Positions 1 through 21,004 of a DNA stretch of 21,571 nt are shown here, one piece after another. The first letter of the stretch is position 1. Each line of letters opens with the position of its first letter. The DNA comes from Armatimonadota bacterium (lineage in GTDB: Bacteria; Armatimonadota; UBA10988). The notes beneath the pieces were generated by a model. The model made no database searches, was not told where the DNA came from, and saw only the letters and a list, made by a program, of their open reading frames with translations. Location of the stretch: assembly GCA_016235455.1 (NCBI GenBank), contig JACRKZ010000091.1, positions 1-21,571 of the forward strand, given 5' to 3'. The translations under genes were made by a program, and so were the position numbers.

Positions 1-855
1 CTGCGCGGCAAGGCGCCGACGCGGGTCTGGCAGCGCCTGCCCGAGGAGACCTTCGACACGCCCGAGAACCGCTTCGTGCGCGGCTTCTGCGAGGCCTTGG
101 GCAGCGCCATCGCCGCCCTGCCACGCCAGCCCTGGTGGCCCAACGTGCCGGATAGCAAGCTGCGCTTGCTGACCGACGCCAAGGCGGCGCTGGCCGGGGC
201 ACTGCGCGCGGAGCCGCTGGTGGACGCCGGCCCGATGCGTCGGCTGCCGTTCGCTTCACAAGTGCTGCTGCGGCGCGACGGGTACCGCGAACTGCGAGAC
301 CTGTGGCAGCGCTTCCAGTTGGCCCGCCGGCCGCTGTTCGGCGCGCTATCTGAAGCGCTTGAGCTGCGGGATGTGGCGACGCTGTATGAGATGTGGGTGT
401 TCTTCGCGCTGGTCGATGAGCTGGCGGAGGTGACGGGTGTGGAGCCGGTGGTGAGCGTCGAGCCGGAGTTGCACCTGCAGCACCAGACCGCCAGGGCGAC
501 GTTTGGCCCGGCCGGCACGCTGTGGTACAACCGCGGCCGCCGAGGCTACTCGGGCCTGCTCAAGCCCGATTACCTGTGGCGCGTGTCCGGCCGGGATCGC
601 GTGGCTTTCGATGCCAAGTTCCGCATGACGCCCGACGAGATGGCCGGGGAGAACGTGGCCAAACGAGCAGACCTGGACAAGATGCACACCTACCGCGACG
701 CTCTTGCGCTGGATGCGGCGGTCTGTGTGTATCCGGGCGATGTGTCGGTGTTTCGGTGTACAGACGGGACCAGCGTCGACGGCGTCGGCGTGCGCGAGGT
801 GGTTGAGGGACTGGCAGGCGTCGGGGCGTTGGCGCGACGGCCGGGGAAGGGGTGA
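1..855 (+). CDS. McrC-like DUF2357 + PD-(D/E)XK nuclease, 5'-truncated by the window edge
   Basis: Frame is open from base 1 (LRGKAPTRVWQRLPEETFDTPENRFV...). It has the DTPENRFV motif of DUF2357, LYEMWVFF, and a C-terminal KPDY...FDAKFR...DLDKMHTYRDAL nuclease core. It ends 3 nt upstream of an McrB-like GTPase. Confidence 0.88.
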   Translation: MRGKAPTRVWQRLPEETFDTPENRFVRGFCEALGSAIAALPRQPWWPNVPDSKLRLLTDAKAALAGALRAEPLVDAGPMRRLPFASQVLLRRDGYRELRDLWQRFQLARRPLFGALSEALELRDVATLYEMWVFFALVDELAEVTGVEPVVSVEPELHLQHQTARATFGPAGTLWYNRGRRGYSGLLKPDYLWRVSGRDRVAFDAKFRMTPDEMAGENVAKRADLDKMHTYRDALALDAAVCVYPGDVSVFRCTDGTSVDGVGVREVVEGLAGVGALARRPGKG

Positions 856-858
856 GCT

Positions 859-3450
859 ATGGCAGACCGGATTGACGACGGCCATTCAAAGACGGCGGTT
901 CCGCAGCCGCAGCGTCGAGAGGACGCCGACCAAGCGCTGGCACCGCGGGAGCGCCGCATCTGGTGGTACCGCGACCAACGGACCGCGGGGTACTACCAGA
1001 TTGAGTTGCCGTGGACCGGTGGAGGCGCCGGCACGGGGCCGCACGCCCTTCGCCTTATCGAGGTCGCGGCAGGCGACCTGATCCTGCGCTTTGACCCCAA
1101 CACGGCAGAGGTCTACGGCGTGTGTGAGGCAACAGAGCCGGCGAAAGAAGTCGGCACGGCAGGCGCCTCCTCGGTTGTGGTCGGCGTGACCAGCCGTCGC
1201 TGTCGCCCTCGTATCCAGATACGCCCGCTCGCCGGTCGCTTGGCGCCGCTGGCGGCCGATGCGACTGACGACTGGCCCATAGGCGCCGACCAGCAGGTGC
1301 GGGTCGGCAGCTTCTACCGGTTCAGCGACGAAGGGCTGCGGGTCCTTCTTGCGTCAATCGGGCAGACGTCCTTGGCGCAGTGGATGAGATCAATCAGCCA
1401 GAGCGATGAGCCCGCTGAGGAGGTCACATCGCCGACCAGGAGCCCAAGGGTGTGGTGGGCAATGGTCGGTCGACAAGCTTCGAAGAAGCAGTATGGCGAC
1501 TGCCTGTGGGCCATGACGGGCACCGGGAAGCGCGACTGGAACCGCATCTCCGAGTTGCGGACCGACGATGTCGTGGTGACCTACGGCGACGGCCAGGTTA
1601 CCGGTCTATACCGAGTGACCGGCGATCCGCAGCAGAGCACCGTGCCGCCGGGTTATCTGACAGACAAGCCGGCGGATACGCCCGGCATGCGAGTGCCGGT
1701 CAAGCACCATGCCTTCGCGCGCCCACTGCCCAACGGCACATTTGCCGCAGCCTTGCTCAGCCTCGGCTTGGACGACGGTCCGCTGCGTTCCAACACGGAC
1801 GGGAAGATCGGCTTCATTTACGAGCTGACGCCCGAAGGCTTGCGGGTCCTGCGCAACTTGTCCGATGAAGAGTGGCCGGAATGGGCTACTGCCGCGCTGC
1901 CTAAGGCCACCGACCCAACGCTGCCGCTCGATCCCCCAGCAGTCGCCACCATGCGGCGCGCTGGCTTGCTGCTCGCTCAGTTCCAGCTTGGCCTTGCTGC
2001 CGCCGGCCTCCACTACACGGAGCACCAGCTCGCAACCTTCCTAACATCGCTTCAGACCAAGGGAGTCGTCATTCTCAGCGGTATCAGCGGCACGGGCAAG
2101 ACAAAGATCGCGCAGTACCTAGCGACAACAATGCCTAACGCGACGGCGCGCTCAGACACTGTGCCTGGCGCAGGCCGCGCGGTGCGGCTGACGCGGACGG
2201 ATATTGAGGGCGGGAAGATCTATCTCCGCAAGCCAGTCCGAGTGGACTTGCCCATGCCACTGCTGGGCGAGACGTGGCGCGTCCAGGTTCGCTTCGGGGA
2301 CGGCCGACTTGGCGACGGCACTGTCACGCACTACAACAAAGACGCTGGCCCAGACCTAAGCCTTCGCGGCGAGGCGAGCCAGTGGTTCAAACGCAATTTC
2401 AGAAGCGGCGACATCATCATCCTGAATCCGACCCTCGACGATGACGGCCAGGTCATCGCCTTCGACCTCGGTACCCCCGAGGACTTCGCCGACCCCTCGG
2501 CGCCGAAGGTCACGACGCCCAACCACCTCTTCCTGCCCGTCCGGCCCGACTGGCGCGACTCCAAGCCGCTGCTCGGCTACTACAACCCGCTCACCGAGAG
2601 CTACGTCCGCACCGAGTTCCTCGACTTCCTGTTGCGCGCCGACGCCAACTGGCGCTCGGGTGAGCCCATCGCCTGGTTCGTCATCCTCGACGAGATGAAC
2701 CTGGCACGGGTCGAGTACTACCTCGCCGACCTGCTCAGCGTGCTGGAGTCAGGCCGCGACGCCGACGGCCGGACCCGCGAGGCGCTGACCTTCGCGGTGC
2801 CAGACGACGCTGATGGCTGGCTGCCACCGCGTGCGCTGCACCTACCGCCGAACCTGTACTTTGTCGGCACGGTCAACGTCGACGAGACCACCCACGCCTT
2901 CAGCCCCAAGGTGCTCGACAGAGCCTTCACCATCGAGCTCTCGCAGGCCGACTTCGCTGACTACCCACCCGCGGTCGGCGATGCCGACGATCTGTCGGAT
3001 GAGGTGCGGAACCAGCTTCTGAAGCAGTTCAGTGATGATGGACGCTGGCCGGTGATCGACAAGGCCATGGTGCGCGAGATCGTCGAGCAGGAGCCCTGGC
3101 TGCGTGCCGATCTGACGGATCTCAACGCCCGGCTGGGTGACGACGGCCTGCAGTTCGCCTACCGCGTGTTCGACGAGATCGCCTGTTTCGTGTGGCGCGC
3201 GGCGCGCAACGGCATGTGGGGCGGCGATCTGCGCGCGGCGTTCGATGAAGCCGTGCTGATGAAGGTGCTGCCCAAGTTCCACGGCTCGCGCGCGCGGCTG
3301 GAAGAGCCGCTGAGGCAGGTGCTGGCTTGGTGCGCCGGAACGGACCCGGCCGATCTGGAGCAGGTTAGCGGCGTCCGCTATCCGCGGACGTGGGCGCGGG
3401 CTGCGCGGCTGCTGCGAGACGTTGAGCGCGACGGGTTCGCGGCGTTCTGA
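859..3450 (+). CDS. McrB-family AAA+ GTPase (NxD type) with N-terminal tandem PUA/EVE-like domains
   Basis: Walker A ILSGISGTGKT; VRPDW...LLGYYNP; Walker B FVILDEMNLARVEYY; signature GTVNVDETTHAFSPKVLDRA; C-terminal MKVLPKFHG and GFAAF. Confidence 0.92.
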   Translation: MADRIDDGHSKTAVPQPQRREDADQALAPRERRIWWYRDQRTAGYYQIELPWTGGGAGTGPHALRLIEVAAGDLILRFDPNTAEVYGVCEATEPAKEVGTAGASSVVVGVTSRRCRPRIQIRPLAGRLAPLAADATDDWPIGADQQVRVGSFYRFSDEGLRVLLASIGQTSLAQWMRSISQSDEPAEEVTSPTRSPRVWWAMVGRQASKKQYGDCLWAMTGTGKRDWNRISELRTDDVVVTYGDGQVTGLYRVTGDPQQSTVPPGYLTDKPADTPGMRVPVKHHAFARPLPNGTFAAALLSLGLDDGPLRSNTDGKIGFIYELTPEGLRVLRNLSDEEWPEWATAALPKATDPTLPLDPPAVATMRRAGLLLAQFQLGLAAAGLHYTEHQLATFLTSLQTKGVVILSGISGTGKTKIAQYLATTMPNATARSDTVPGAGRAVRLTRTDIEGGKIYLRKPVRVDLPMPLLGETWRVQVRFGDGRLGDGTVTHYNKDAGPDLSLRGEASQWFKRNFRSGDIIILNPTLDDDGQVIAFDLGTPEDFADPSAPKVTTPNHLFLPVRPDWRDSKPLLGYYNPLTESYVRTEFLDFLLRADANWRSGEPIAWFVILDEMNLARVEYYLADLLSVLESGRDADGRTREALTFAVPDDADGWLPPRALHLPPNLYFVGTVNVDETTHAFSPKVLDRAFTIELSQADFADYPPAVGDADDLSDEVRNQLLKQFSDDGRWPVIDKAMVREIVEQEPWLRADLTDLNARLGDDGLQFAYRVFDEIACFVWRAARNGMWGGDLRAAFDEAVLMKVLPKFHGSRARLEEPLRQVLAWCAGTDPADLEQVSGVRYPRTWARAARLLRDVERDGFAAF

Positions 3451-3569: not shown

Positions 3570-4919
3570 TCACTGCTGCATGTCGACTGACTCGTCGTCC
3601 ACCACCACGCCCTCATGGCCATCGCGCTGGAACTTGAGCCGGTGATAGGCCACGGTGCGCCGCGAGATCGTCGTGCCGTAGTCGTTCTCCAGCACGGCGC
3701 GGATCTCGTTGTCGGTCAGGTGCGGGTTGCGCTCGACGATGCGGCGGACCACATCGGTCTTCTTCTGGAAGAGGAACTTCAGCTCCATCAGCCCGTCGGG
3801 CGTGTCGATGATCTTGTCGCGCAGCAGCCGGCAGACGGTGGCCTCGTCCTCGCCCAGCTCGCGCGCAATATCGGCCTGGGAGAGCGGCTTGAGCGCATAG
3901 ACATCGCGCGTGAGGAAGAAGCGGTACTGGAACTGGCAGACCGCCATGACCAGCCGACAAAGGAGCGTCTTGCGCTGGTTGATCCACTGGAGTTCCAGCA
4001 GCAGGTTCTCCGCATCCTCGACATCGCTCAGGTCGGCCGCCCGGCTCAGCGCGTCGGGGCTGGTGCGGTAGCGCTGGCTGTAGACGCCATCATCGGTGAA
4101 GCTGATGGCCACACAGCGCTCGTGGTCGGTGAGCAGCACCTTGGCCACCGGGCGCAGCTCAGTCGCCGGCGAGTTGCCGGCCGAGGCGCGGGTCGAGCTC
4201 TCGGTGGTGCCGCCGCCGGAGACGAAGGTCTCCACGATGTGCAGCCGACCCAAGGCCTCGAGGATCTCCTCGACCTCGTTGAGCGGCGCCTTGTAGCGCT
4301 CGGCCAACACCGCCGCCGGCTCGCTGCCCTGCATGAAATCGCGCAGGAAGTCGCCTTGCTCCAGGCCGTAACCGTCCACAAACTCGCGCATGAGCACGAT
4401 GCTGTCGGTCATGTCGACATCGGCGCGCGAGGGGATCAGCTCGACGTAGTCCGGCTCGTTCTCGTCGAACTCGGCGCCCGTGCCGCCGCCGACGCCACCG
4501 TCCATGCCGTAGTGGTCCGAGGTGACCCGCTGGTAGTACTCGATGATCTTCTTGAGCTTGGGCGCCGGCGCGGCATAGCGCTCGGCCAGCTCGGGCAGGC
4601 GGGTCAGCGCCTCGCGGTCCAGGAAGTCGCGTTCCCACTGGTCGTGCTGCGTGACCTTGTACTGCTTGAGGAACTGCATGAGTTGCACATCCATGTACTC
4701 CTCATACTTCTCCCGCGGCACGCGACCCCGTGTCTTGACCCGGCGGATGGCCCCCGCCTCCACCAGTCGCTGGAAGGCCGGCGAATCCTCGACGGTCCGC
4801 ACATAGTCGCGGAACTCATCCTCCGGCCGGTCCAACAGATCGATCAGCTGCCGCGGCGGTCGCCTGACCGCCAACTGCGCCTTCACCTGGACCCGAACCC
4901 TGACCTCCGGCCGGTTCAT
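3570..4919 (-). CDS. Divergent RNA polymerase sigma-54 (RpoN)-like protein
   Basis: C-terminal QRKTLL...QFQYRFF...LKPLSQADIARELGEDEATVCR...KIIDTPDGLMELKFLF...LTDNEI...ISRRTVAYHR follows the RpoN HTH and RpoN-box layout. The N-terminus resembles Region I (QLIDLL...E...SP). Start moved to ATG 4919, which has an AGGAG RBS at 4930-4926. Confidence 0.78.
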   Translation of the reverse strand: MNRPEVRVRVQVKAQLAVRRPPRQLIDLLDRPEDEFRDYVRTVEDSPAFQRLVEAGAIRRVKTRGRVPREKYEEYMDVQLMQFLKQYKVTQHDQWERDFLDREALTRLPELAERYAAPAPKLKKIIEYYQRVTSDHYGMDGGVGGGTGAEFDENEPDYVELIPSRADVDMTDSIVLMREFVDGYGLEQGDFLRDFMQGSEPAAVLAERYKAPLNEVEEILEALGRLHIVETFVSGGGTTESSTRASAGNSPATELRPVAKVLLTDHERCVAISFTDDGVYSQRYRTSPDALSRAADLSDVEDAENLLLELQWINQRKTLLCRLVMAVCQFQYRFFLTRDVYALKPLSQADIARELGEDEATVCRLLRDKIIDTPDGLMELKFLFQKKTDVVRRIVERNPHLTDNEIRAVLENDYGTTISRRTVAYHRLKFQRDGHEGVVVDDESVDMQQ

Positions 4920-4929
4920 GCAGCACTCC

Positions 4930-4945
4930 TGGCAAGTTAGTTGCA
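4930..4945 (+). promoter_or_regulatory. Sigma-54-type -24/-12 element
   Basis: TGGCAAGTTAGTTGCA matches TGGCA-N6-TTGCA with exact GG-N10-GC spacing and lies beside an rpoN-like gene. Confidence 0.6.
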
Positions 4946-5000
4946 ATGGAAGTCTAGCTCACACCCGGGCCGGCGTCAACCCTCAGCGCCCAGGCGCCTC

Positions 5001-7002: not shown

Positions 7003-7569
7003 ATGCGCACGACTGCGCTCGCAATGGCCGCGTGGATGGCAGTGGCGATGGCCATCGGTTGGCCGGCGGCGGCGGAAGAGCCGGTCAAGTCGGGCCCTCA
7101 GCCAGGCCAGCCCGTGCCCGGCGCTTTCGAACCGTTGAACATCACCGGCGAGCACGCCGGCGAGCGCTACTGCCTGACCTGCGCGGCGGGCCTGCAGCCG
7201 GAGGTGATGATCTTCGCCCGGACTCTGAGCGAACCGCTGCTGAAGCTGCTCAAACGCCTCGAGACCGCCATCGCGAAGCACAGCAAGCAGGGCCTGGGCA
7301 GCTTCTGCGTCTTCCTGAGCGAGGCCGAAGGGCTTGACCAGCAACTGCGCGACGCCGCGGAGAAGCACGGCTTGGCGCAGGTGGTGCTGGCCATCGACGC
7401 ACCCGAAGGGCCCGACGGTTACGATCTGGCCAAGGAGGCCGACGTGACCGTGGTGCTGTACGAGCAGCACATCGTCCGCGCCAACCACGCGCTGCGCGCT
7501 GGTGGCCTCGACGACGCGGCCATCGGCCGAGTCATGGCCGATCTCGCCAAGATACTGCCCGCCGAATGA
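7003..7569 (+). CDS. Secreted thioredoxin/redoxin-like fold protein with CxxC (start 6994 GTG or 7003 ATG)
   Basis: Signal peptide (MRTTALAMAAW...AAA-EE); SGPQPGQPVP...F.PLNITG...CLTC...VMIFAR resembles a redoxin N-terminus; ATGA overlap with the next ORF. Confidence 0.65.
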   Translation: MRTTALAMAAWMAVAMAIGWPAAAEEPVKSGPQPGQPVPGAFEPLNITGEHAGERYCLTCAAGLQPEVMIFARTLSEPLLKLLKRLETAIAKHSKQGLGSFCVFLSEAEGLDQQLRDAAEKHGLAQVVLAIDAPEGPDGYDLAKEADVTVVLYEQHIVRANHALRAGGLDDAAIGRVMADLAKILPAE

Positions 7570-8876
7570 ACCCTCGGAGCACCCACATGACACGAACCGC
7601 CGTCCGTTGCCTGTGCTATGGCCTGGTACTGACCGCCACCGCGCTGCTGGGCGCCAGCGACGCGCTCAAGGCCGAGATGAAAGATCCCGATCTGGCGGCG
7701 CACTGGATCTACGACGACCTGCCGGCAGCCACCGCACAGGCCAAAGCGAGCGGCCAACCGCTGCTGGTCGCGCTGCGCTGCGTGCCCTGCCCCGCGGCCA
7801 TCAAGCTCGATGCCGCCCTGACCCACCCATCGCCTGAGCTGGAGGCGGTCGAGAAGCAGTTTGTCTGCGTTCGCGTGGTCAAGAACCAGGGGCTCGACCA
7901 GCGCATCTTCCAGTTCGATGGGGACAACTCGCTGGTGCTGTTCTTCCTCAATGCGGACGGCACGATCTACGGCCGCTATGGGTCGCGGAACGGCAACGCC
8001 GGCAACTCCGACAATCTGCTGTCGGAGGCGGCCGCCCGCAGGGCCATGGAGCGCGCCCTGGTGCTGCACCGGGCCTATCCGGGCAACAAGGCCCAGTTGG
8101 CCGGCAAGCGCGGGCCGGCGCCCGAGTATGCGCTGCCCGAGCAGATCCCCGGCTTGACCGACCGCGCCGTGGAGCCCGTGACCCGCAAGGCCTGCATCCA
8201 CTGCCACATGATCCGCGAGCGGCAGATCACCAACAAGTACAACGCCGGCACGCTCAAGGCGAGCGACCTGTTCGTCTATCCCCTGCCTGACAACATCGGC
8301 CTGAAGATCGCGGTCGACGACGGCCGGCGAGTCGAGCAGGTGGCGGCAGGTTCGCCGGCCGCCAAGGCCGGGCTGGCGGCTGGTGACGAACTGCTGACGC
8401 TCAACGGCCAGCCGCTCACCTCGGTGGCCGATATGCAGTGGGTGCTCAACGCGCTGCCCGAGGAGTCGACGCTGACGGCTCAGGCCAGGCGCGGCGCCGC
8501 GACGCTCGACTTCAAGCTGGCGCTGAGCGGCCCCTGGCGCGAGTCCGATCTGGGCTGGCGGTCCTCCACCTGGGCGGGCCTGCGCCATGGCCTGCTGACG
8601 GTGCCACTGACGGCCGAGGAGAGGCAGGCGCTTGGCGTGGCCGATGGCAGCCTGGCGCTGGCGGTCAAGCAGATGTATGGCAACGCGGCACAAGTCCTGC
8701 CGAAGGCCGGGCTCAAGACGCGTGACGTCATCGTCAGTGTCGGCGACAAGGCGCGCGCGCTGACCGAGTCGCAGTTCCTGGTGCATCTGCGCACCACCTA
8801 CGGCCCGGGTGACCCCGTGAAGGTCACCGTGCTGCGCGATACGCAGCGCCTGGAGTTGACGCTCCCGCCGTGGTGA
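7566..8876 (+). CDS. Trx7/PDZ-domain protein (thioredoxin-like + CxxCH + two PDZ-like domains), secreted
   Basis: Signal peptide; WIYDDL...A.A...G.PLLVALRCVPC; FF.NADGTIYGRYG; CIHCH; PDZ motifs GSPAAKAGLAAGDELLTLNG and KAGLKTRDVIVSV. Alternative start ATG 7587. Confidence 0.85.
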   Translation: MNPRSTHMTRTAVRCLCYGLVLTATALLGASDALKAEMKDPDLAAHWIYDDLPAATAQAKASGQPLLVALRCVPCPAAIKLDAALTHPSPELEAVEKQFVCVRVVKNQGLDQRIFQFDGDNSLVLFFLNADGTIYGRYGSRNGNAGNSDNLLSEAAARRAMERALVLHRAYPGNKAQLAGKRGPAPEYALPEQIPGLTDRAVEPVTRKACIHCHMIRERQITNKYNAGTLKASDLFVYPLPDNIGLKIAVDDGRRVEQVAAGSPAAKAGLAAGDELLTLNGQPLTSVADMQWVLNALPEESTLTAQARRGAATLDFKLALSGPWRESDLGWRSSTWAGLRHGLLTVPLTAEERQALGVADGSLALAVKQMYGNAAQVLPKAGLKTRDVIVSVGDKARALTESQFLVHLRTTYGPGDPVKVTVLRDTQRLELTLPPW

Positions 8877-10024: not shown

Positions 10025-11095
10025 TCAGCCGAGCGCCGTCAGCCAGGCCACCACCTTGGTCTTCCGCGCCTCGCGCGCCAGGGCCAGCGGCGTCCGGCCT
10101 TCGGCGTCGCGGGCGGAAACGTCGGCGCCCGCCGCGACCAGATCGCTCAGCACGGCGTCGCTCAGCCCGCGGTGTGCGGCATAGTGCAGCGGCGTCCAGC
10201 CTCTGTTGTCGGCGCGACGCGGGTCGGCGCCGTGGGCCAGCAGCCAGGCCAGCGACCGGAGTTGGCCGAAGCGGCAGGTCTCGCCCAGCAGCGTGTTGCC
10301 GAGCTTCTCATCGCCCAGACCGTCCACCGCCCAGTGGGCCGGGTCGATCAGATCCAGCAGTTCGACCCGGTTGCGCATGACCAGCCGCGGGAACGCGGAT
10401 CTGCTGTCGGCGCCGGCCAGCACGAAGACTCGCGCCACGGCCGGCGGGCCGGCGCCGCAGGCCCAGCTCAGCGGCGTGTCGTGCTCCTCGTGGATGGGCG
10501 CGTCGGGCTCGGCACCATGGTCCAGCAACCGCTCGGCGATGGTGGCCAACCGTTGCTCGGTCTCGGCCCCGCGTCGCCACCAGCGCGTGCCCGCGACGAT
10601 GGCCAACGGCGGGTTGCCCCGCGCGTTGGGGCGCAGCGCGGCCGCGGGGGCGCCGGCCAGGACCGCTTCGGCGCGCGCCAGATCGGCGATGGCGGATCGC
10701 AGCAGCGCCACGGCCGGCCAATCGTCGTGCCAGGCAGCCAGGCCCAGCGCGGTCAGGCCTTGGCGACCACGACCACGCAGGTCGGCGCCACGCTCGAGCA
10801 GGAGCCGCACGGTGGCCTCGTGGCCGGGCGACCAGGTGGTCTGGGAGCAGATGCAGCAGGTGCGATCCAAGGGCCGACCCATGCCGCCGGTGTCCAGGTT
10901 CGGGTCGGCTCCGGCGTCCAGCAGCAGGCGCACAATCTCGACATGGCCGAACGAACAGGCCTTCATCAGCGGGTCGGGGTGCGTCGCGACGGCGTGATTG
11001 GCGCCCAAGGCGGCGGCAAAGGCGGCGGTGTCGCCGGCTTGGGCGGCTTTGATGGCGGCGCGCAGCAGGCGCTGCGGTGTGTCGATGGGCGGCAT
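10025..11095 (-). CDS. Ankyrin-repeat protein
   Basis: PLMKACSFGHVEIVRLLLDAGADPN, GLTALGLAA, GWTPLHYAA...AGADVSARDAEGRTPLALA; GAGGA RBS before ATG 11095. Confidence 0.9.
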   Translation of the reverse strand: MPPIDTPQRLLRAAIKAAQAGDTAAFAAALGANHAVATHPDPLMKACSFGHVEIVRLLLDAGADPNLDTGGMGRPLDRTCCICSQTTWSPGHEATVRLLLERGADLRGRGRQGLTALGLAAWHDDWPAVALLRSAIADLARAEAVLAGAPAAALRPNARGNPPLAIVAGTRWWRRGAETEQRLATIAERLLDHGAEPDAPIHEEHDTPLSWACGAGPPAVARVFVLAGADSRSAFPRLVMRNRVELLDLIDPAHWAVDGLGDEKLGNTLLGETCRFGQLRSLAWLLAHGADPRRADNRGWTPLHYAAHRGLSDAVLSDLVAAGADVSARDAEGRTPLALAREARKTKVVAWLTALG

Positions 11096-11211
11096 GGCGG
11101 TCCTCAGGGGTATTGTGAAGCCGGCGCGGCCAACGCGACAGATCGCCGCGCGCCGGAAGGAGAGCGCAGCGCCCGGGCGTAGTTCGCTGCTCAGCGGAGG
11201 CTGCGACACCG

Positions 11212-16147: not shown

Positions 16148-16390
16148 GGGTGTTCCCCTCCGCGGGCGCCGGTGTGGGGCTCGCGGCGTGGGTTGGTTCG
16201 TGGTGGGTGGTGGGTGTCCTGCTGGGTTGGGGTGCGGCGCGTCGTTTACTCTGAGGCCTGGCGCCCGCCAGTCGCTGCCAGGCGCCACTGCGGCGTGATC
16301 GGCCGGGTGCGTGGCGATGCAGTTCGGGTGGCGGCCGTGACGTCGGCAGCCCGCCTAAGCGCGGTGCGCGCGGCCGCCACGGACCGCCGC

Positions 16391-16489
16391 TAGACTGCGC
16401 TCGCGATCCTTAGGCGCCCGGAACACATCGTCGCGACGGTTACGGTGGTAGGCGACGTCGTGTGGCCGGCCCGAGACGATGGCGCGGGC
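16391..16489 (-). pseudogene. Decayed N-terminal fragment of a RAYT / IS200-like Y1 transposase
   Basis: ARAIVSGRPHDVAYHRNRRDDVFRAPKDRERSL resembles the typical RAYT start (AR..V.G.PHH.TQRGN.R..VF....DR..YL). There is no nearby start codon, a stop follows shortly after, and no HUH motif is present. Confidence 0.5.
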
Positions 16490-16584
16490 CGCCCAGAAGG
16501 CGGGTGCGTACGGCCCACAGGTGCGGCATCGGCTTGAACGCGTAGCGTCGCGTCTGCCTCCCCCATGCCTGCAGCGGCAACGCA

Positions 16585-17277
16585 TCAAGAATGCGAACTG
16601 TCGCGGATGGCCGTCCAGACCGCAGTCTGGGTCTCGCTTGAGGGCCAGCGGCTGAAGCCAACGGCGCCGGATGACGCGGCATGGATCCGCAGCGGCTCCC
16701 CGCGGCAATCGAAGGCCAAGTTGATTCGGTCCAGGCAGTACGCCCTATCGCCAACCCACCGGATCGCGTTGTCGACGACGTTACGCTGCCCGCAAGCGAC
16801 CACGGTCGCGGTCACCTGGTCGTCAAGGGCCACGCCCGATAGCCGAACACTGCGCACCGCGGCAGGCCCTAGCGTCGACTCCAGCCGCTCCTTCAGCTCA
16901 CCAAGTCGGACATCCGCCTGCTCGACACCTAGCCGATCCGATGCGAACCCGGCCAAGCGCATTGTGAAGATGCTTGTCGAACGCGGCGGGTTGGTGAGGC
17001 AGAGGCCAAGCGGGCCTGGTGCGGCAAGGAAGCCCGTCGTCTCATACTCGACGCGCTCATATGGCACTTCGGTGCCTGTAGGGGTGACGACCACATCGGT
17101 AAACTGGCGGCGCATGATGAAGCGACCCAAAACCAAGGCATCGGAACGATGGTCGATCTGGAAGCCGATGCCTCGGGCCTCGTCGTACGCATCTTGCAGC
17201 ATCTGGTCCGTGAGATGCCGAAAGAGCGTTGTGTCTGCCGACCAATTGAGGACCCGCATCCGGTAGACCACCGTCAT
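16585..17277 (-). CDS. Hypothetical protein, gene 3 of a putative defence operon
   Basis: 230 aa with globular composition; ATGA overlap with the upstream gene; no motif recognised. Confidence 0.8.
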   Translation of the reverse strand: MTVVYRMRVLNWSADTTLFRHLTDQMLQDAYDEARGIGFQIDHRSDALVLGRFIMRRQFTDVVVTPTGTEVPYERVEYETTGFLAAPGPLGLCLTNPPRSTSIFTMRLAGFASDRLGVEQADVRLGELKERLESTLGPAAVRSVRLSGVALDDQVTATVVACGQRNVVDNAIRWVGDRAYCLDRINLAFDCRGEPLRIHAASSGAVGFSRWPSSETQTAVWTAIRDSSHS

Positions 17278-18464
17278 CCTGCCTCTCTGGCCATCGCTCC
17301 CTCTGACCCAGCGAGGATAGCATCGATGGACTCCTCGGCCGCTCGTTCCAGGAGCACTTGGTAACGTCGTTGCTCGTCCGAGTCGCAGGCGCGGTGAGTC
17401 TTCAACAACTGACCGTCGTTGCGTTGGCTCCTCGGGTAGATGCCACGAACCTGGTAGCAGAACTCGGTGCAGTCGGCCTCATTGCCGAAGCGGGCCTCGA
17501 AAGCGACTCGCACGCCGTTTGCCGTCTGTTCCTCAGACTCCCACGTAGCCCCACAGACGTAGAACTTGCTCGTCAGTGCTGTGTACTCGCGGCTGGCGAG
17601 CACCGTTTGGCCGCGAAGCACCATGTTCTTGACCAGACCAATCACATCGACGTCGGGCCCAAGGGCCTCTTCGAGCACGGCGTCGTCACCCGCAGCGTCA
17701 CCATAGGGCATGTCGGCCTCAGGGCGTGGTTCGGCCTCGGCCGAACTAGCCATCGCATGAGCACGGTGGAGGGAGACCTGCGTGACGTCGACCAAGACCA
17801 TCCTATCCAAGCTACGCATCATCCCCGTGAAGAAGGCGGTCCTGGCTTCGGCAGCCACTACGTTGAGTAGGCTAATAGGGCGCACCGCCGGCGGTAGCGC
17901 CTCCTCCTCACTGGGGGGCAACTGCGCGAGGAACTCATCAGCCAGCGCCTGAAGCTGGGGGTTGGCTTCATGGCGCAGGCTGTAACCCCCATCGCACCGG
18001 CTGACGACAAGCGTCCCCTCTTTGAGGCGTCGCTGCGCCAATCGCGTCTTCGAGGCATCCAACTCCGAGTACGAGACTGTCAGTTCGAACACACCGTCGG
18101 TCGGCCGGGTGATGGTGAGCACCTCGCCCCCCATCGCCGCTCGACTGGCCTTCACCACCTCCAGCGCTGCCACTACATCCGATGGCCCAGCGCTCGTGTC
18201 CATCTTCGCGAAGGTAACCCTCTCGGCGCGAGGGTTTGTATCGGTGTGATCGAGAAGTAGCCGCAAGTCGGGCCAGTCAAGGAACACGGTCGCAAGGTAG
18301 CGGACGATCTCCTCCCTCGGCTCCTGGTCCGACACTAGTATGCCGCGCCCAAGCAGGAACTCGCGAAGCACGGTCGTTGTCAACTTCTGCTTCGAGGATT
18401 CCAGCAGGTCCAGGATGTCCTTGTCGTCAGCGTAGTACAACACCGACTGCGCGCGTGCCCTCAT
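17274..18464 (-). CDS. Hypothetical protein (loosely GapS4b-like N-terminus), gene 2 of a putative defence operon
   Basis: 396 aa; ATGA overlaps on both sides; N-terminal L...L..RGI.....E....L...FL pattern; Ala/acidic-rich loop at about aa 240-275. Confidence 0.8.
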   Translation of the reverse strand: MRARAQSVLYYADDKDILDLLESSKQKLTTTVLREFLLGRGILVSDQEPREEIVRYLATVFLDWPDLRLLLDHTDTNPRAERVTFAKMDTSAGPSDVVAALEVVKASRAAMGGEVLTITRPTDGVFELTVSYSELDASKTRLAQRRLKEGTLVVSRCDGGYSLRHEANPQLQALADEFLAQLPPSEEEALPPAVRPISLLNVVAAEARTAFFTGMMRSLDRMVLVDVTQVSLHRAHAMASSAEAEPRPEADMPYGDAAGDDAVLEEALGPDVDVIGLVKNMVLRGQTVLASREYTALTSKFYVCGATWESEEQTANGVRVAFEARFGNEADCTEFCYQVRGIYPRSQRNDGQLLKTHRACDSDEQRRYQVLLERAAEESIDAILAGSEGAMAREAG

Positions 18465-19438
18465 CGGTCGTCCATCCCGATCTCGATCTCGCTGAATGTG
18501 GGTACAACCGTGGTGACTGTCTCCACGCGTACACGACCCAGGCGCTCGCGGATCTCGTCCAGGTTGTGCAGAGCCGCCACATGGTCATCGACCGCCTGGC
18601 GGAACTGTGTCACAGCGTCGCTCGCGCCTCTGGGCAGGCGCAGCCGCACCTCATCATAGTGCAGCAACTGGTACCGGAATAGGTAGTCGATCAGGTACTT
18701 GAACTCATCAGCCGATCTACCGGTCCGAGAGTAGTAGACAAGCAAGCCATGGAGGACCTTCGGCCCATCGCTATCGGTACGCTCGTACTTGGCGGCGATC
18801 AGCGGACCGGTCAGGGCCTCAACCGTGGCCGACTTGACGTGGTCGTGCCGCGCCCGCACAGTGACCAGGTCCGGGTACAGATACCCGAACCTGCTTGTGT
18901 CTATCCGCAGGCTGTGCTGCATCCGAGCGATGTCGTTGGCCACCGTGGCCAAGTACGCGATCCTGTCTGGCCCCATCACGTAGAGGCGCTGCCGCCGCGG
19001 CACGGCAAGGTCGGCCGGCCGGATCCGACCCAAGAGCTGCTCGAAGTCGGCGTCATATGCTCCGTCGTGGTTGTAGACGAATAGAAGGCCGTGTATCTCT
19101 GTCGCTTCCCCTGGCTTCACGTACCGCTCCTGCCAAGGTGAGCTTATGTTGGCACAGTGCGTCGCCTTCGAGAGCGATTGAATGGCATCCGCAATCCGAT
19201 CCTTTGAGATGGTGCCCCTGGCGTAACTCTTGAGGTCGACGTTCAGGTACACCTCTACGGCACGGTAGGGGTGGGCGTACCGGAACACCACGTCGGTTGG
19301 GTGGGTCTGTTTGTGATGCGCGGGATCCTCGCACGGCCAGTTCTGGTTCACAGGAGGCACGCGCTCCCAGCCGAAGACGCCAAACACATCGGTCGCAAGC
19401 TTGTCCGCCATTCTGGCGATCGCTTCGGTTTCGGCCAT
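18461..19438 (-). CDS. Putative PD-(D/E)XK nuclease (loosely GapS4a-like), gene 1 of a putative defence operon
   Basis: N-terminal helix, then C....HH..THPTDVVF.Y..P......LNVDLKSY followed by a helix and a GLLFVYN strand, i.e. restriction-endonuclease-fold layout. GAGGA RBS before ATG 19438. Confidence 0.75.
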   Translation of the reverse strand: MAETEAIARMADKLATDVFGVFGWERVPPVNQNWPCEDPAHHKQTHPTDVVFRYAHPYRAVEVYLNVDLKSYARGTISKDRIADAIQSLSKATHCANISSPWQERYVKPGEATEIHGLLFVYNHDGAYDADFEQLLGRIRPADLAVPRRQRLYVMGPDRIAYLATVANDIARMQHSLRIDTSRFGYLYPDLVTVRARHDHVKSATVEALTGPLIAAKYERTDSDGPKVLHGLLVYYSRTGRSADEFKYLIDYLFRYQLLHYDEVRLRLPRGASDAVTQFRQAVDDHVAALHNLDEIRERLGRVRVETVTTVVPTFSEIEIGMDDR

Positions 19439-19506
19439 GGTGTCCTCTGGCGGAGCAGGCGCAGACGGCGACCGAGGCATTTGGAGCTGCTCACACCTGA
19501 TTGCAG

Positions 19507-19535
19507 AGGATGCCATCCGGCCAAGGTCATGTCAA
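19507..19535 (-). promoter_or_regulatory. Candidate sigma-70 promoter of the three-gene operon
   Basis: Minus-strand TTGACA-17 nt-CATCCT with an extended -10 TGn, about 70 nt upstream of ATG 19438. Confidence 0.55.
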
Positions 19536-19807
19536 TGGGCTTTCTGGACAACCACGCCACGTGCGCCAAGCGATGGCCAAAGCAACAGTGTGCGTCACCA
19601 GACCGAACTAACTTGCCAACTCTCGAACGGAGACCGACCGGAATAGCCCGCCCGTGCGCGTTCGACTTGCTCGCCATCGCCAAGGACACAGTCAGCGACA
19701 GTGCGGGCCCAGCGATTGCAGGGGCGCGGTCCGCCGTTCGGACTTGCGGACGCCTCAACGGCCACCCTAGCCCGGGCTCCGTCCACACCACCGACACAAC
19801 CGCCAAC

Positions 19808-21004
19808 CTACTTCCCAGCCGCCGGAGCCGCCGGCGGGTTCGGCGCCTGCACGGGCTGCGGATAGCTGATGCCCTTGCGCGATGCCTGCACGGCGATCAT
19901 CTCCAGCACCTTCTGGTCGAACGGGTCGCCGCCACCGGCCGCGGCCAGGCGCTTGGTCTCGGCGTCGACGAAGGTCTGGCGCTTGCGGTTGAGCTCGTCG
20001 AACTGGGTCTGGAGGACCTTGCGCTTGGCGCCCTGGTCCTTGAGATAGGCCTCGCGCTCGGCCGGGCTCATCTTGCGCATGTTCTCGGGCAGTTCCTCGG
20101 TCTTCAGCTCGCCGAGCTTGGCGCGGCCCAGCGCCATGTCCTGCACCAGGTCGCCCGCGCCGCTCACCACGGCGCCGTCGAACCGGCCGCCGAGCGTGGC
20201 GACACGGTCCGCCGCCACCGACGCCGGCGCTGCCGCGGCCACGCCGGCCTTGCTGGCGATCTCCGCCTGCTGGCGCACGCTGCCGTAGGCCACGACCGTC
20301 TTGGTCATTTCGGTGTTGAGCCGCGCGATCTCGAGGTCATACGGTGTGGCGATGGCGGTCATGCCGCCGCTTTGGTCGATCTGGACGTACTTGCCCTCGC
20401 CCTTGAGCGCAATGTCGCGCCAGATCGGGCCGGTCTCACCATAGTTGCCGCACTGCACGGTGTTGACGATGATGTCGCGGCCCAGCGCGTCCTTGACCGT
20501 GTCCGGCCACTTGACATCGTCCTTGTAGTCCATGTGCGGCGGGCAGTCGCCGACCAGGAAGATGACGCGGTAGGTGTCGGAGCCAGTGCTCCAAGTGATG
20601 TCCTTCACGGCTTCGGCCAGGGCCTGGTTGACCGACTCCGGCGTGTCCCCGCCACCGCCGGCGGTGAAGGTGGTCAGGTTGGCGTACACGGCGTCGAGGT
20701 CGTCGCTGAGGTCAAACCGCTTGGTGACATACGCGTCGCCGCGGTCGCGATAGCTGACCAGCCCGATGCGCAGTTGCGGCGTGGGCTTGCCGCTGAGCAG
20801 TTGGTTGGCAATCGACCAGACCTTGCGCTTGGCGCCGTCGATCAGCCCGCCCATGGAGCCTGTGCTGTCGAGCACGAAGCAGACCTCAATCTTGGGGCCG
20901 GCGGCGGCGGCGGGCTGAGCCGCCGTGGCCGGCTTGGCCGGCTGAGCCGAGGCCAGCGAGGCGGCCCACAGGAGACCAGCGCACAACAGGGAGCAGCGTT
21001 TCAT
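19808..21004 (-). CDS. Secreted von Willebrand factor A (VWA) domain protein
   Basis: Signal peptide; MIDAS FVLDSTGSM; GLVSYRD, GGGDTPE, IFLVGDCPPH, IVNTVQCG; helical C-terminus. Confidence 0.92.
   Translation of the reverse strand: MKRCSLLCAGLLWAASLASAQPAKPATAAQPAAAAGPKIEVCFVLDSTGSMGGLIDGAKRKVWSIANQLLSGKPTPQLRIGLVSYRDRGDAYVTKRFDLSDDLDAVYANLTTFTAGGGGDTPESVNQALAEAVKDITWSTGSDTYRVIFLVGDCPPHMDYKDDVKWPDTVKDALGRDIIVNTVQCGNYGETGPIWRDIALKGEGKYVQIDQSGGMTAIATPYDLEIARLNTEMTKTVVAYGSVRQQAEIASKAGVAAAAPASVAADRVATLGGRFDGAVVSGAGDLVQDMALGRAKLGELKTEELPENMRKMSPAEREAYLKDQGAKRKVLQTQFDELNRKRQTFVDAETKRLAAAGGGDPFDQKVLEMIAVQASRKGISYPQPVQAPNPPAAPAAGK

Follow-up and report, generated by a model that had tools for sequence, protein, structure and literature searches.

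A cassette of three genes lies on the minus strand of a 21,571-nucleotide (nt) stretch of DNA from an Armatimonadota bacterium (assembly GCA_016235455.1, contig JACRKZ010000091.1); this whole stretch is hereafter called the window. The cassette very probably belongs to the described anti-phage system Rst_3HP (3HP in PADLOC), as a diverged member present in one copy and gained by horizontal transfer, and we name its genes after the three proteins of that defence system. The Hp1 gene (gene 1) occupies positions 18461..19438 and encodes 325 amino acids (aa), the Hp2 gene (gene 2) occupies positions 17274..18464 and encodes 396 aa, and the Hp3 gene (gene 3) occupies positions 16585..17277 and encodes 230 aa, each followed by a stop codon. 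Read from the sequence, the stop codon of Hp1 and the start codon of Hp2 overlap in an ATGA at 18461..18464, and the stop codon of Hp2 and the start codon of Hp3 overlap in another ATGA at 17274..17277.

The three gene lengths and both overlaps had been given in a preliminary description of this DNA, and they are present as described. An upstream ATG at 19516 is an alternative start for gene 1, from which the protein would be 351 aa long. We regard the 325-aa start as the right one because an M-x-E-T motif is kept at the aligned Hp1 start in 32 of 36 relatives, that is, in all those without an N-terminal truncation (in three of them behind an upstream extension), and because GAGGA is found a few bases upstream of this start.

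Membership in Rst_3HP

The window proteins were compared with the hidden Markov models of PADLOC, and the matches were read by E-value and model coverage. Hp1 matched PDLC03004 (2.1e-61, 206 bits) over model positions 3-333 of 333, Hp2 matched PDLC03005 (2.1e-32) over positions 4-352 of 359, and Hp3 gave a partial match to PDLC03006 (3.8e-10) over positions 22-160 of 227, or 61% of the model. These matches fall in the gene order Hp1-Hp2-Hp3. In PHROGs, each protein matched a family of unknown function: Hp1 matched phrog_7059 (4e-93), Hp2 a second family (2e-61) and Hp3 phrog_5850 (2.1e-24, positions 15-210 of 228). Local copies of Pfam and NCBIfam returned 0 matches for Hp1, Hp2 and Hp3. All 120 listed relatives of Hp1 carry PF26115.1 as a precomputed label. 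Besides Hp1, Hp2 and Hp3, no NCBIfam or PADLOC model matched the cassette proteins apart from DruF, a single weak PADLOC match at 0.0097 that we rejected.

When Hp1 was compared by tblastn with 50,697 phage records, nine records were matched. The trio of Vibrio phage 1F53_PE003 (PQ189388) is annotated as Rst_3HP__Hp1, Hp2 and Hp3. A Klebsiella P2-like phage (Peduoviridae) carries the trio between its portal and replication-endonuclease genes, and in a filamentous Pf-like phage of Pseudomonas of 13 kilobases (kb; OR621021.1, Tubulavirales) the trio bears the labels nuclease related protein, hypothetical protein and RdgC-like exonuclease. The Pseudomonas phage cassette is complete, spans 485-3252 and adjoins a repressor and an excisionase. 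By BLASTP, Hp1 is 30-41% identical to the Klebsiella, Vibrio and Pseudomonas phage copies (1e-56 to 3e-75; 1.4e-56 for Rst_3HP__Hp1 of PQ189388). Hp2 is 23-29% identical to the copies of the same three phages (3e-13 to 7e-36), with 2.6e-13 for Rst_3HP__Hp2 of PQ189388 and 6.7e-36 for the gene of the Klebsiella P2-like phage. Hp3 is 30-32% identical to the Klebsiella (7.8e-14) and Pseudomonas (1.0e-16) phage proteins; its pairwise comparison with the Vibrio Hp3 was not significant (E = 0.091, 26% identity), and iterated jackhmmer searches joined the window Hp3 with the Hp3 proteins of all three.

MT836957.1 (1-2661), an unverified fecal phage contig, holds a distant 3HP variant with the order Hp3-Hp1-Hp2 and with E-x-K in place of D-x-K in Hp1.

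Rst_3HP was described from a hotspot in P2-like prophages of E. coli (Rousset et al., 2022, PMC9122126). The E. coli relative was scored there as a defence system and acted on one of the eight phages tested, P1; the name 3HP is absent from the main text of that paper. In a 2024 survey the domains of Rst_3HP were not classifiable. The Klebsiella cassette is 96% identical to the E. coli one, with a match in 26 of 5426 complete genomes and a coverage of at least 80% in 17. In one E. coli genome, the cassette lies within a P2-like prophage, with the portal gene on one side and the replication endonuclease on the other, and the RefSeq name of E. coli Hp1 is PD-(D/E)XK nuclease domain-containing protein. 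We equated this P2-prophage cassette with the validated clone by position and gene content, not by accession.

Since all three proteins match Hp1, Hp2 and Hp3 of PADLOC in order, the cassette is not a new system. The preliminary description had recognized an anti-phage-type cassette, which the match to Rst_3HP bears out. It had also proposed that the system was uncharacterised and had named Rst_3HP as one to be excluded; this is the very system that all three proteins match, Hp3 over 61% of its model, and the claim of novelty does not hold.

Distribution of the trio and origin of the window copy

To sample relatives of Hp1, each species was represented by a single genome in a pattern scan, which yielded 195 stretches encoding them, and 80 loci were kept. 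The trio was detected in these loci by iterated jackhmmer with the window proteins over the plus-strand open reading frames (ORFs). The loci span Pseudomonadota, Verrucomicrobiota, Acidobacteriota, Myxococcota, Cyanobacteria and others. The order Hp1-Hp2-Hp3 was found in 75 of the 80, and the other five (L016, L029, L040, L069 and L077) end less than 1 kb after Hp1. IMG/VR provided 90 stretches with relatives, of which 80 were kept; the full trio is present in order in 75, and five are cut by contig ends. The order is thereby found in 150 of 160 loci in total, the remaining 10 being cut by contig ends, and Hp3 is present in every untruncated locus. The Hp2 and Hp3 families were recovered from the loci around Hp1; a word-index homologue search gave only one other relative for Hp2 and two for Hp3.

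Overlapping or abutting junctions are the rule. The 4-nt overlap of Hp2 and Hp3 seen in the window occurs in 40 of 78 related loci, and the overlap of Hp1 and Hp2 measures 8 nt in 21 loci and 4 nt in 18, where the first possible start codon was taken at each junction, so that some overlaps are overstated. In an Acinetobacter metagenome-assembled genome (locus L019, 8987-10079), Hp2 is split into two ORFs of 137 and 159 aa, which probably represents a decayed copy or an assembly error.

Twenty neighbourhoods were sampled over +/-5.5 kb with crude ORF calls, and we sorted the Pfam families into classes ourselves. Mobile-element families were found in 10 of them (integrases, Mu/DDE transposases, relaxases, Trb, and phage portal, tail and replication genes) and defence-type families in five (type I restriction-modification (R-M) genes directly upstream in two, SNF2-Mrr, GmrSD and NERD-helicase); 13 of the 20 contain one or the other. 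The window copy shows that horizontal transfer has carried 3HP far outside Proteobacteria and their phages.

The window copy itself looks horizontally acquired. Its GC content is 0.624, compared with a mean of 0.693 (standard deviation 0.018) for equal-sized segments of the 6.5-megabase genome, and only 0.08% of 6058 such segments are as GC-low. GC at third codon positions is also lower, 0.75-0.78 in the cassette and 0.81-0.90 in eight other window genes, in agreement with the atypical composition noted earlier by eye. Hp1 is present in two of the 401 genomes of the phylum searched, its own genome included. In 30 relatives no cassette DNA was found and the flanking genes alone matched; an empty site was not definable because these matches to the flanking genes lie on different contigs. 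In a relative at 65-78% identity, Hp1, Hp2 and Hp3 are apparently encoded on one 7270-nt contig.

The cassette is flanked by genes for a beta-helix/NosD-type protein and a VWA protein, both with signal-peptide-like N-termini by eye, so that its location between two secreted-protein genes was correctly described. These immediate neighbours resemble ordinary host genes, and the genome has only one copy of the cassette and of each flank. The transposase scar that had been placed next to the cassette was not recovered, as a Pfam comparison (E<=1) of 14 stop-to-stop frames covering both intergenic flanks returned no transposase family. The scan of the window ORFs and the flank frames revealed no mobile genes around the cassette, there are no tRNA genes, and no flanking direct or inverted repeats were found above chance-level short matches. 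Methyltransferase, helicase and integrase families were likewise absent from the scanned window ORFs, in line with the earlier statement that this is not a standard R-M system.

Several other genes of the window were annotated. At its left end, a truncated gene encoding DUF2357 and PDDEXK_7 domains (1-855, plus strand) precedes a gene for an 863-aa protein (859-3450, plus strand), which gave a match to PDC-M26A, a candidate defence gene of PADLOC (1.1e-45), and a weak one to nSTAND3. Lying about 13 kb away from the 3HP cassette, these two genes may constitute another defence locus unrelated to it. A 458-aa ORF on the minus strand (3570-4946) matches only the sigma-54 DNA-binding domain (Pfam, 2.9e-16) and lies far under the NCBIfam RpoN cut-offs (61.6 versus 277 bits); the opposite strand holds an equally long ORF. 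The gene at 7566-8876 (plus strand) gives a full-length match to the NCBIfam Trx7/PDZ domain-containing (seleno)protein (NF041199, 1.7e-116). An ankyrin-repeat protein is encoded at 10025-11209 (minus strand), and its weak PADLOC matches (PDC-M72A, 2.1e-20; Ankyrin, 1.7e-8) probably reflect repeat similarity only.

Predicted folds and a candidate mechanism

The AlphaFold2 (AF2) model of Hp1, built from a 36-sequence alignment, has a pLDDT of 91 and a pTM of 0.89. It predicts an N-terminal PD-(D/E)XK nuclease domain, in which the restriction-endonuclease-like alpha-beta-beta-beta-alpha-beta core is present, and a second endonuclease-like domain. Local Foldseek matches of the model include HamA, Cap4 and R2 endonuclease, and a further fold search (VIA) lists FokI, BspD6I, McrC, MspJI, AspBHI, Hjc resolvases and NucS. 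Whole-model Foldseek returned the central domain of acetyl-CoA carboxylase and APOBEC3G, global matches of low TM that we regarded as spurious. By sequence, profile searches of the PDB with the Hp1, Hp2 and Hp3 alignments yielded nothing under E 0.18.

The THPTD...DLK core that the preliminary description had read in gene 1 is present, and H46, P47, D49, D68, L69, K70 and S71 are invariant in 36 of 36 relatives. In the model, D49 is located at the junction of strands 45-48 and 50-55, and D68 and K70 are in strand 62-72; these adjacent strands after helix 2-22 form the canonical site of the motif. The codons of D49, D68 and K70 are at 19294-19292, 19237-19235 and 19231-19229 on the minus strand, respectively. 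Hp1 is likely the effector, a predicted metal-dependent PD-(D/E)XK DNase that would use D49, D68 and K70, with E3 of helix 1 possibly contributing. N123-H124-D125, C36, H41 and C95 are likewise invariant. Two cysteines and two histidines (C36, H41, H46 and C95) are kept in all 36 relatives beside the catalytic motif, and they may bind a metal or belong to the active centre.

The Hp2 model (pLDDT 86.8, pTM 0.80, 45-sequence alignment) consists of a SAP-like N-terminal helical domain at about 10-77 and an RdgC/Iml3/CENP-L-like body at 79-385 with a disordered acidic insert at 239-269. Foldseek matched Hp2 to the RdgC-like fold (E 2.6e-5, probability 1.00), and 175-220 residues of its body can be superposed on RdgC and on Iml3/CENP-L. 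The top matches of Hp2 in BFVD are entries for the phage recombination-associated protein RdgC and exonucleases. The fold predicted for Hp2 is thus RdgC-like.

For Hp3, the nearest named ESM Atlas clusters of two sequences that are about 24% identical were CENP-L (0.85 and 0.83) and RdgC (0.80 and 0.79), a weak lead that Hp3 might share the RdgC/CENP-L fold class. Residue 55 of the window Hp3 is M where 84% of relatives have D or E. A complex prediction of Hp1, Hp2 and Hp3 with Hp3 as the scored partner gave an ipSAE of 0.01 twice, without controls, and was used neither way. RexA was not among the best 50 matches of any fold search.

The RdgC/IML3/CHL4 fold binds DNA as homo- or heterodimers (PMC11077077). 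According to the same source, RdgC is a ring-shaped, non-specific DNA binder that modulates RecA, the Iml3-Chl4 heterodimer of this fold grips centromeric DNA, and RexA, the exclusion protein of phage lambda, also has it. GAPS4 (GAPS4a and GAPS4b; Mahata et al., NAR 2026, PMC13748975) is described as an N-terminal HGxD-SxK PD-(D/E)xK subunit with a partner predicted to be a DNA-encircling ring. It is a DNA-binding 2:2 complex in which DNA damage triggers DNA degradation, each subunit is non-toxic alone, and its authors argue for a sensor-effector rather than a toxin-antitoxin system.

The explanation that we favor overall, and consider probable, is that the cassette is an Rst_3HP member in which a DNA-clamp sensor directs the Hp1 nuclease. 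Nuclease activity, DNA binding, a complex among Hp1, Hp2 and Hp3, the trigger, and the expression of this copy are what we infer in this proposal. Hp1 would be the DNase effector that cuts DNA. Hp2 would carry its SAP-like DNA-binding head on a body of the RdgC/Iml3/CENP-L type and, alone or with Hp3, might load as a ring or horseshoe on phage or aberrant DNA; loaded Hp2, perhaps together with Hp3, would then position or license Hp1 to cut. That Hp2, alone or with Hp3, forms such a DNA-loaded ring or horseshoe licensing Hp1 is a more tentative part of the proposal, argued by analogy. The arrangement would be a sensor-effector one like that proposed for GAPS4, not a toxin-antitoxin pair, and the close coupling of their translation would hold Hp1, Hp2 and Hp3 at a constant ratio.

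Several observations weigh against this explanation. At the sequence level, Pfam gave 0 matches that would link Hp2 or Hp3 to RdgC, and PF04381 found the true RdgC only, not Hp2 or Hp3, in four of five 3HP-carrying genomes. Comparisons of Hp2 and Hp3 with RdgC alignments (5 and 34 sequences) by hhalign gave a probability of <=1.1%, and that of Hp3 with Hp2 gave 0.3%. The lead on the Hp3 fold consists of ESM scores of 0.79-0.85, which are below the trust level, and one phage record's third-party label. The match of Hp3 to its PADLOC model is partial, and position 166 within the G-x-x-D-V-R motif, which is D or E in 95% of 44 relatives, is N in the window Hp3. Neither a defence nor a mobile hallmark was found in seven of the 20 neighbourhoods. 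The only phenotype that we found in print for Rst_3HP is protection against P1, and its non-enterobacterial members are known from sequence. Finally, the preliminary description had given the cassette its own promoter. A promoter-like TTGACA-17-CATCCT does lie upstream of the cassette on the minus strand (19506..19534), with TTGACA at 19534-19529, a 17-nt spacer and then CATCCT. Its -35 hexamer is a perfect match, whereas CATCCT agrees with the -10 consensus TATAAT at 3/6 positions, and a consensus scan of 16200-19900 returned 0 promoter-like sites. The match is below threshold, and the promoter is a possibility only.

Among the alternatives, a toxin-antitoxin or abortive-infection system would have Hp1 as a constitutively active nuclease toxin that is held by Hp2 and/or Hp3 and freed on infection, which corresponds to the restrained nuclease offered as an option in the preliminary description. 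The tight translational coupling and the strict co-occurrence of the trio fit a toxin kept with its inhibitors, and Hp2 is strongly acidic (net charge -19 in the window, family median -11), like some nuclease inhibitors or DNA mimics. However, RdgC is equally acidic (median -10) and yet binds DNA, and Hp2 keeps nine conserved basic positions. In GAPS4, the closest mechanistic analogue, neither subunit is toxic alone and the authors favor a sensor-effector arrangement (PMC13748975). We consider a held toxin unlikely.

Rather less likely still, the cassette might encode a methylase-less restriction enzyme, either modification-dependent (Type IV-like) or sequence-specific, with Hp2 and Hp3 as specificity or translocation-free clamp subunits. 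No methyltransferase is encoded in the cassette, FokI, BspD6I, McrC, MspJI and AspBHI are in the Hp1 fold list, and the action of the E. coli system on one of eight phages would fit narrow recognition. On the other hand, Pfam, PADLOC and NCBIfam revealed no recognizable reader of modified bases (e.g. SRA or YTH) and no NTPase in Hp1, Hp2 or Hp3, and the fold class of Hp2 binds DNA non-specifically in RdgC and RexA (PMC11077077).

The trio could also be a recombination, repair or element-maintenance module of prophages and conjugative elements, made of an RdgC-like modulator and a structure-specific nuclease, with the anti-P1 effect being secondary. The modulation of RecA by RdgC (PMC11077077), the Hjc resolvases and NucS in the Hp1 fold list, and the recombination genes YqaJ, ERF and UmuCD in several neighbourhoods agree with such a role. 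Its location at moron/defence hotspots (the P2 gpQ-gpA hotspot, and beside type I R-M and GmrSD genes), the rarity and patchiness of the cassette, and the scoring of the E. coli relative as a defence system speak against a maintenance function, which we judge to be very improbable.

The least probable alternative, that the window copy is an inactive relic with intact frames that is no longer expressed or functional, would fit the -10 hexamer below threshold, N166 of Hp3 and the lack of mobile genes around the cassette in the window, but none of the three frames is broken or shortened relative to the profiles, the catalytic residues of Hp1 are intact, the relative at 65-78% identity keeps all three genes, and decay as in L019, with its split Hp2, looks different.

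Comparison with known systems

The window cassette shares with Rst_3HP its three protein families, their order and the tight junctions between the genes. The protein sizes are similar, 333/359/227 aa in Rst_3HP and 325/396/230 aa in the window, and the identities between the window proteins and the enterobacterial, Vibrio and Pseudomonas copies are 30-41% (Hp1), 23-29% (Hp2) and 26-32% (Hp3). The window copy differs from Rst_3HP in being chromosomal, in a high-GC host of another phylum, between secreted-protein genes and without a nearby prophage or integrase, and the window Hp2 has the extra acidic disordered insert. The locus in itself is ordinary, a further copy of a defence system that is already catalogued. 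Searches of open-access papers and bioRxiv turned up no published mechanism for Rst_3HP, and the fold assignments are therefore a modest, testable contribution. What is new is the model-based assignment of folds to Hp1 and Hp2, the system itself being already described; the predicted folds give a concrete testable model of a D...DxK nuclease with an RdgC/CENP-L-type protein that bears a SAP-like head.

A standard R-M system was rejected for this cassette, as no methyltransferase family was found in it or in its immediate neighbours; without a methylase, it is not an R-M system. In Hachiman (HamA) and Shedu (SduA), PD-(D/E)XK effectors are activated by DNA ends or aberrant DNA. The PADLOC models of Hachiman and Shedu did not match Hp1, Hp2 or Hp3, and a helicase partner like HamB of Hachiman is missing from 3HP. 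The likeness is at the fold level only.

The loose resemblance of genes 1 and 2 to GAPS4, put forward in the preliminary description, stands as a reasonable functional analogy by paper description. The first protein of each system bears a divergent PD-(D/E)xK motif at its N-terminus, HGxD-SxK for GAPS4a and HPxD-DxK for Hp1. The second protein is predicted to be a DNA-encircling ring in both systems, the first two proteins together amount to about 80 kDa in each, and both systems are found on P2-like prophages and other mobile elements. GAPS4 has two genes (or a fused one), whereas 3HP has three, the third of which is kept in every untruncated locus; this comparison is by paper description only. 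The DNA-damage trigger and the 2:2 stoichiometry were measured for GAPS4.

RexA shows the RdgC/Iml3-Chl4 (CENP-L/CENP-N) fold in use for phage exclusion, and the predicted body of Hp2 shares this fold. Hp2 has no sequence-profile similarity to the RdgC/RexA/Iml3-Chl4 class and would add to it the SAP-like head. The predicted folds suggest a link of 3HP to GAPS4 and RexA. A more speculative and on the whole doubtful extension is that Hp2 and Hp3 form a heterodimeric RdgC-type clamp, as the Chl4/Iml3 pair does, which would use its SAP head together with a basic pore to thread or grip phage or damaged DNA and would switch on Hp1, and that 3HP, GAPS4 and possibly RexA are branches of one ancient design of an RdgC ring plus effector. 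If this were true, the module with which such an immune design grips DNA would be common to it and the inner kinetochore of eukaryotes.

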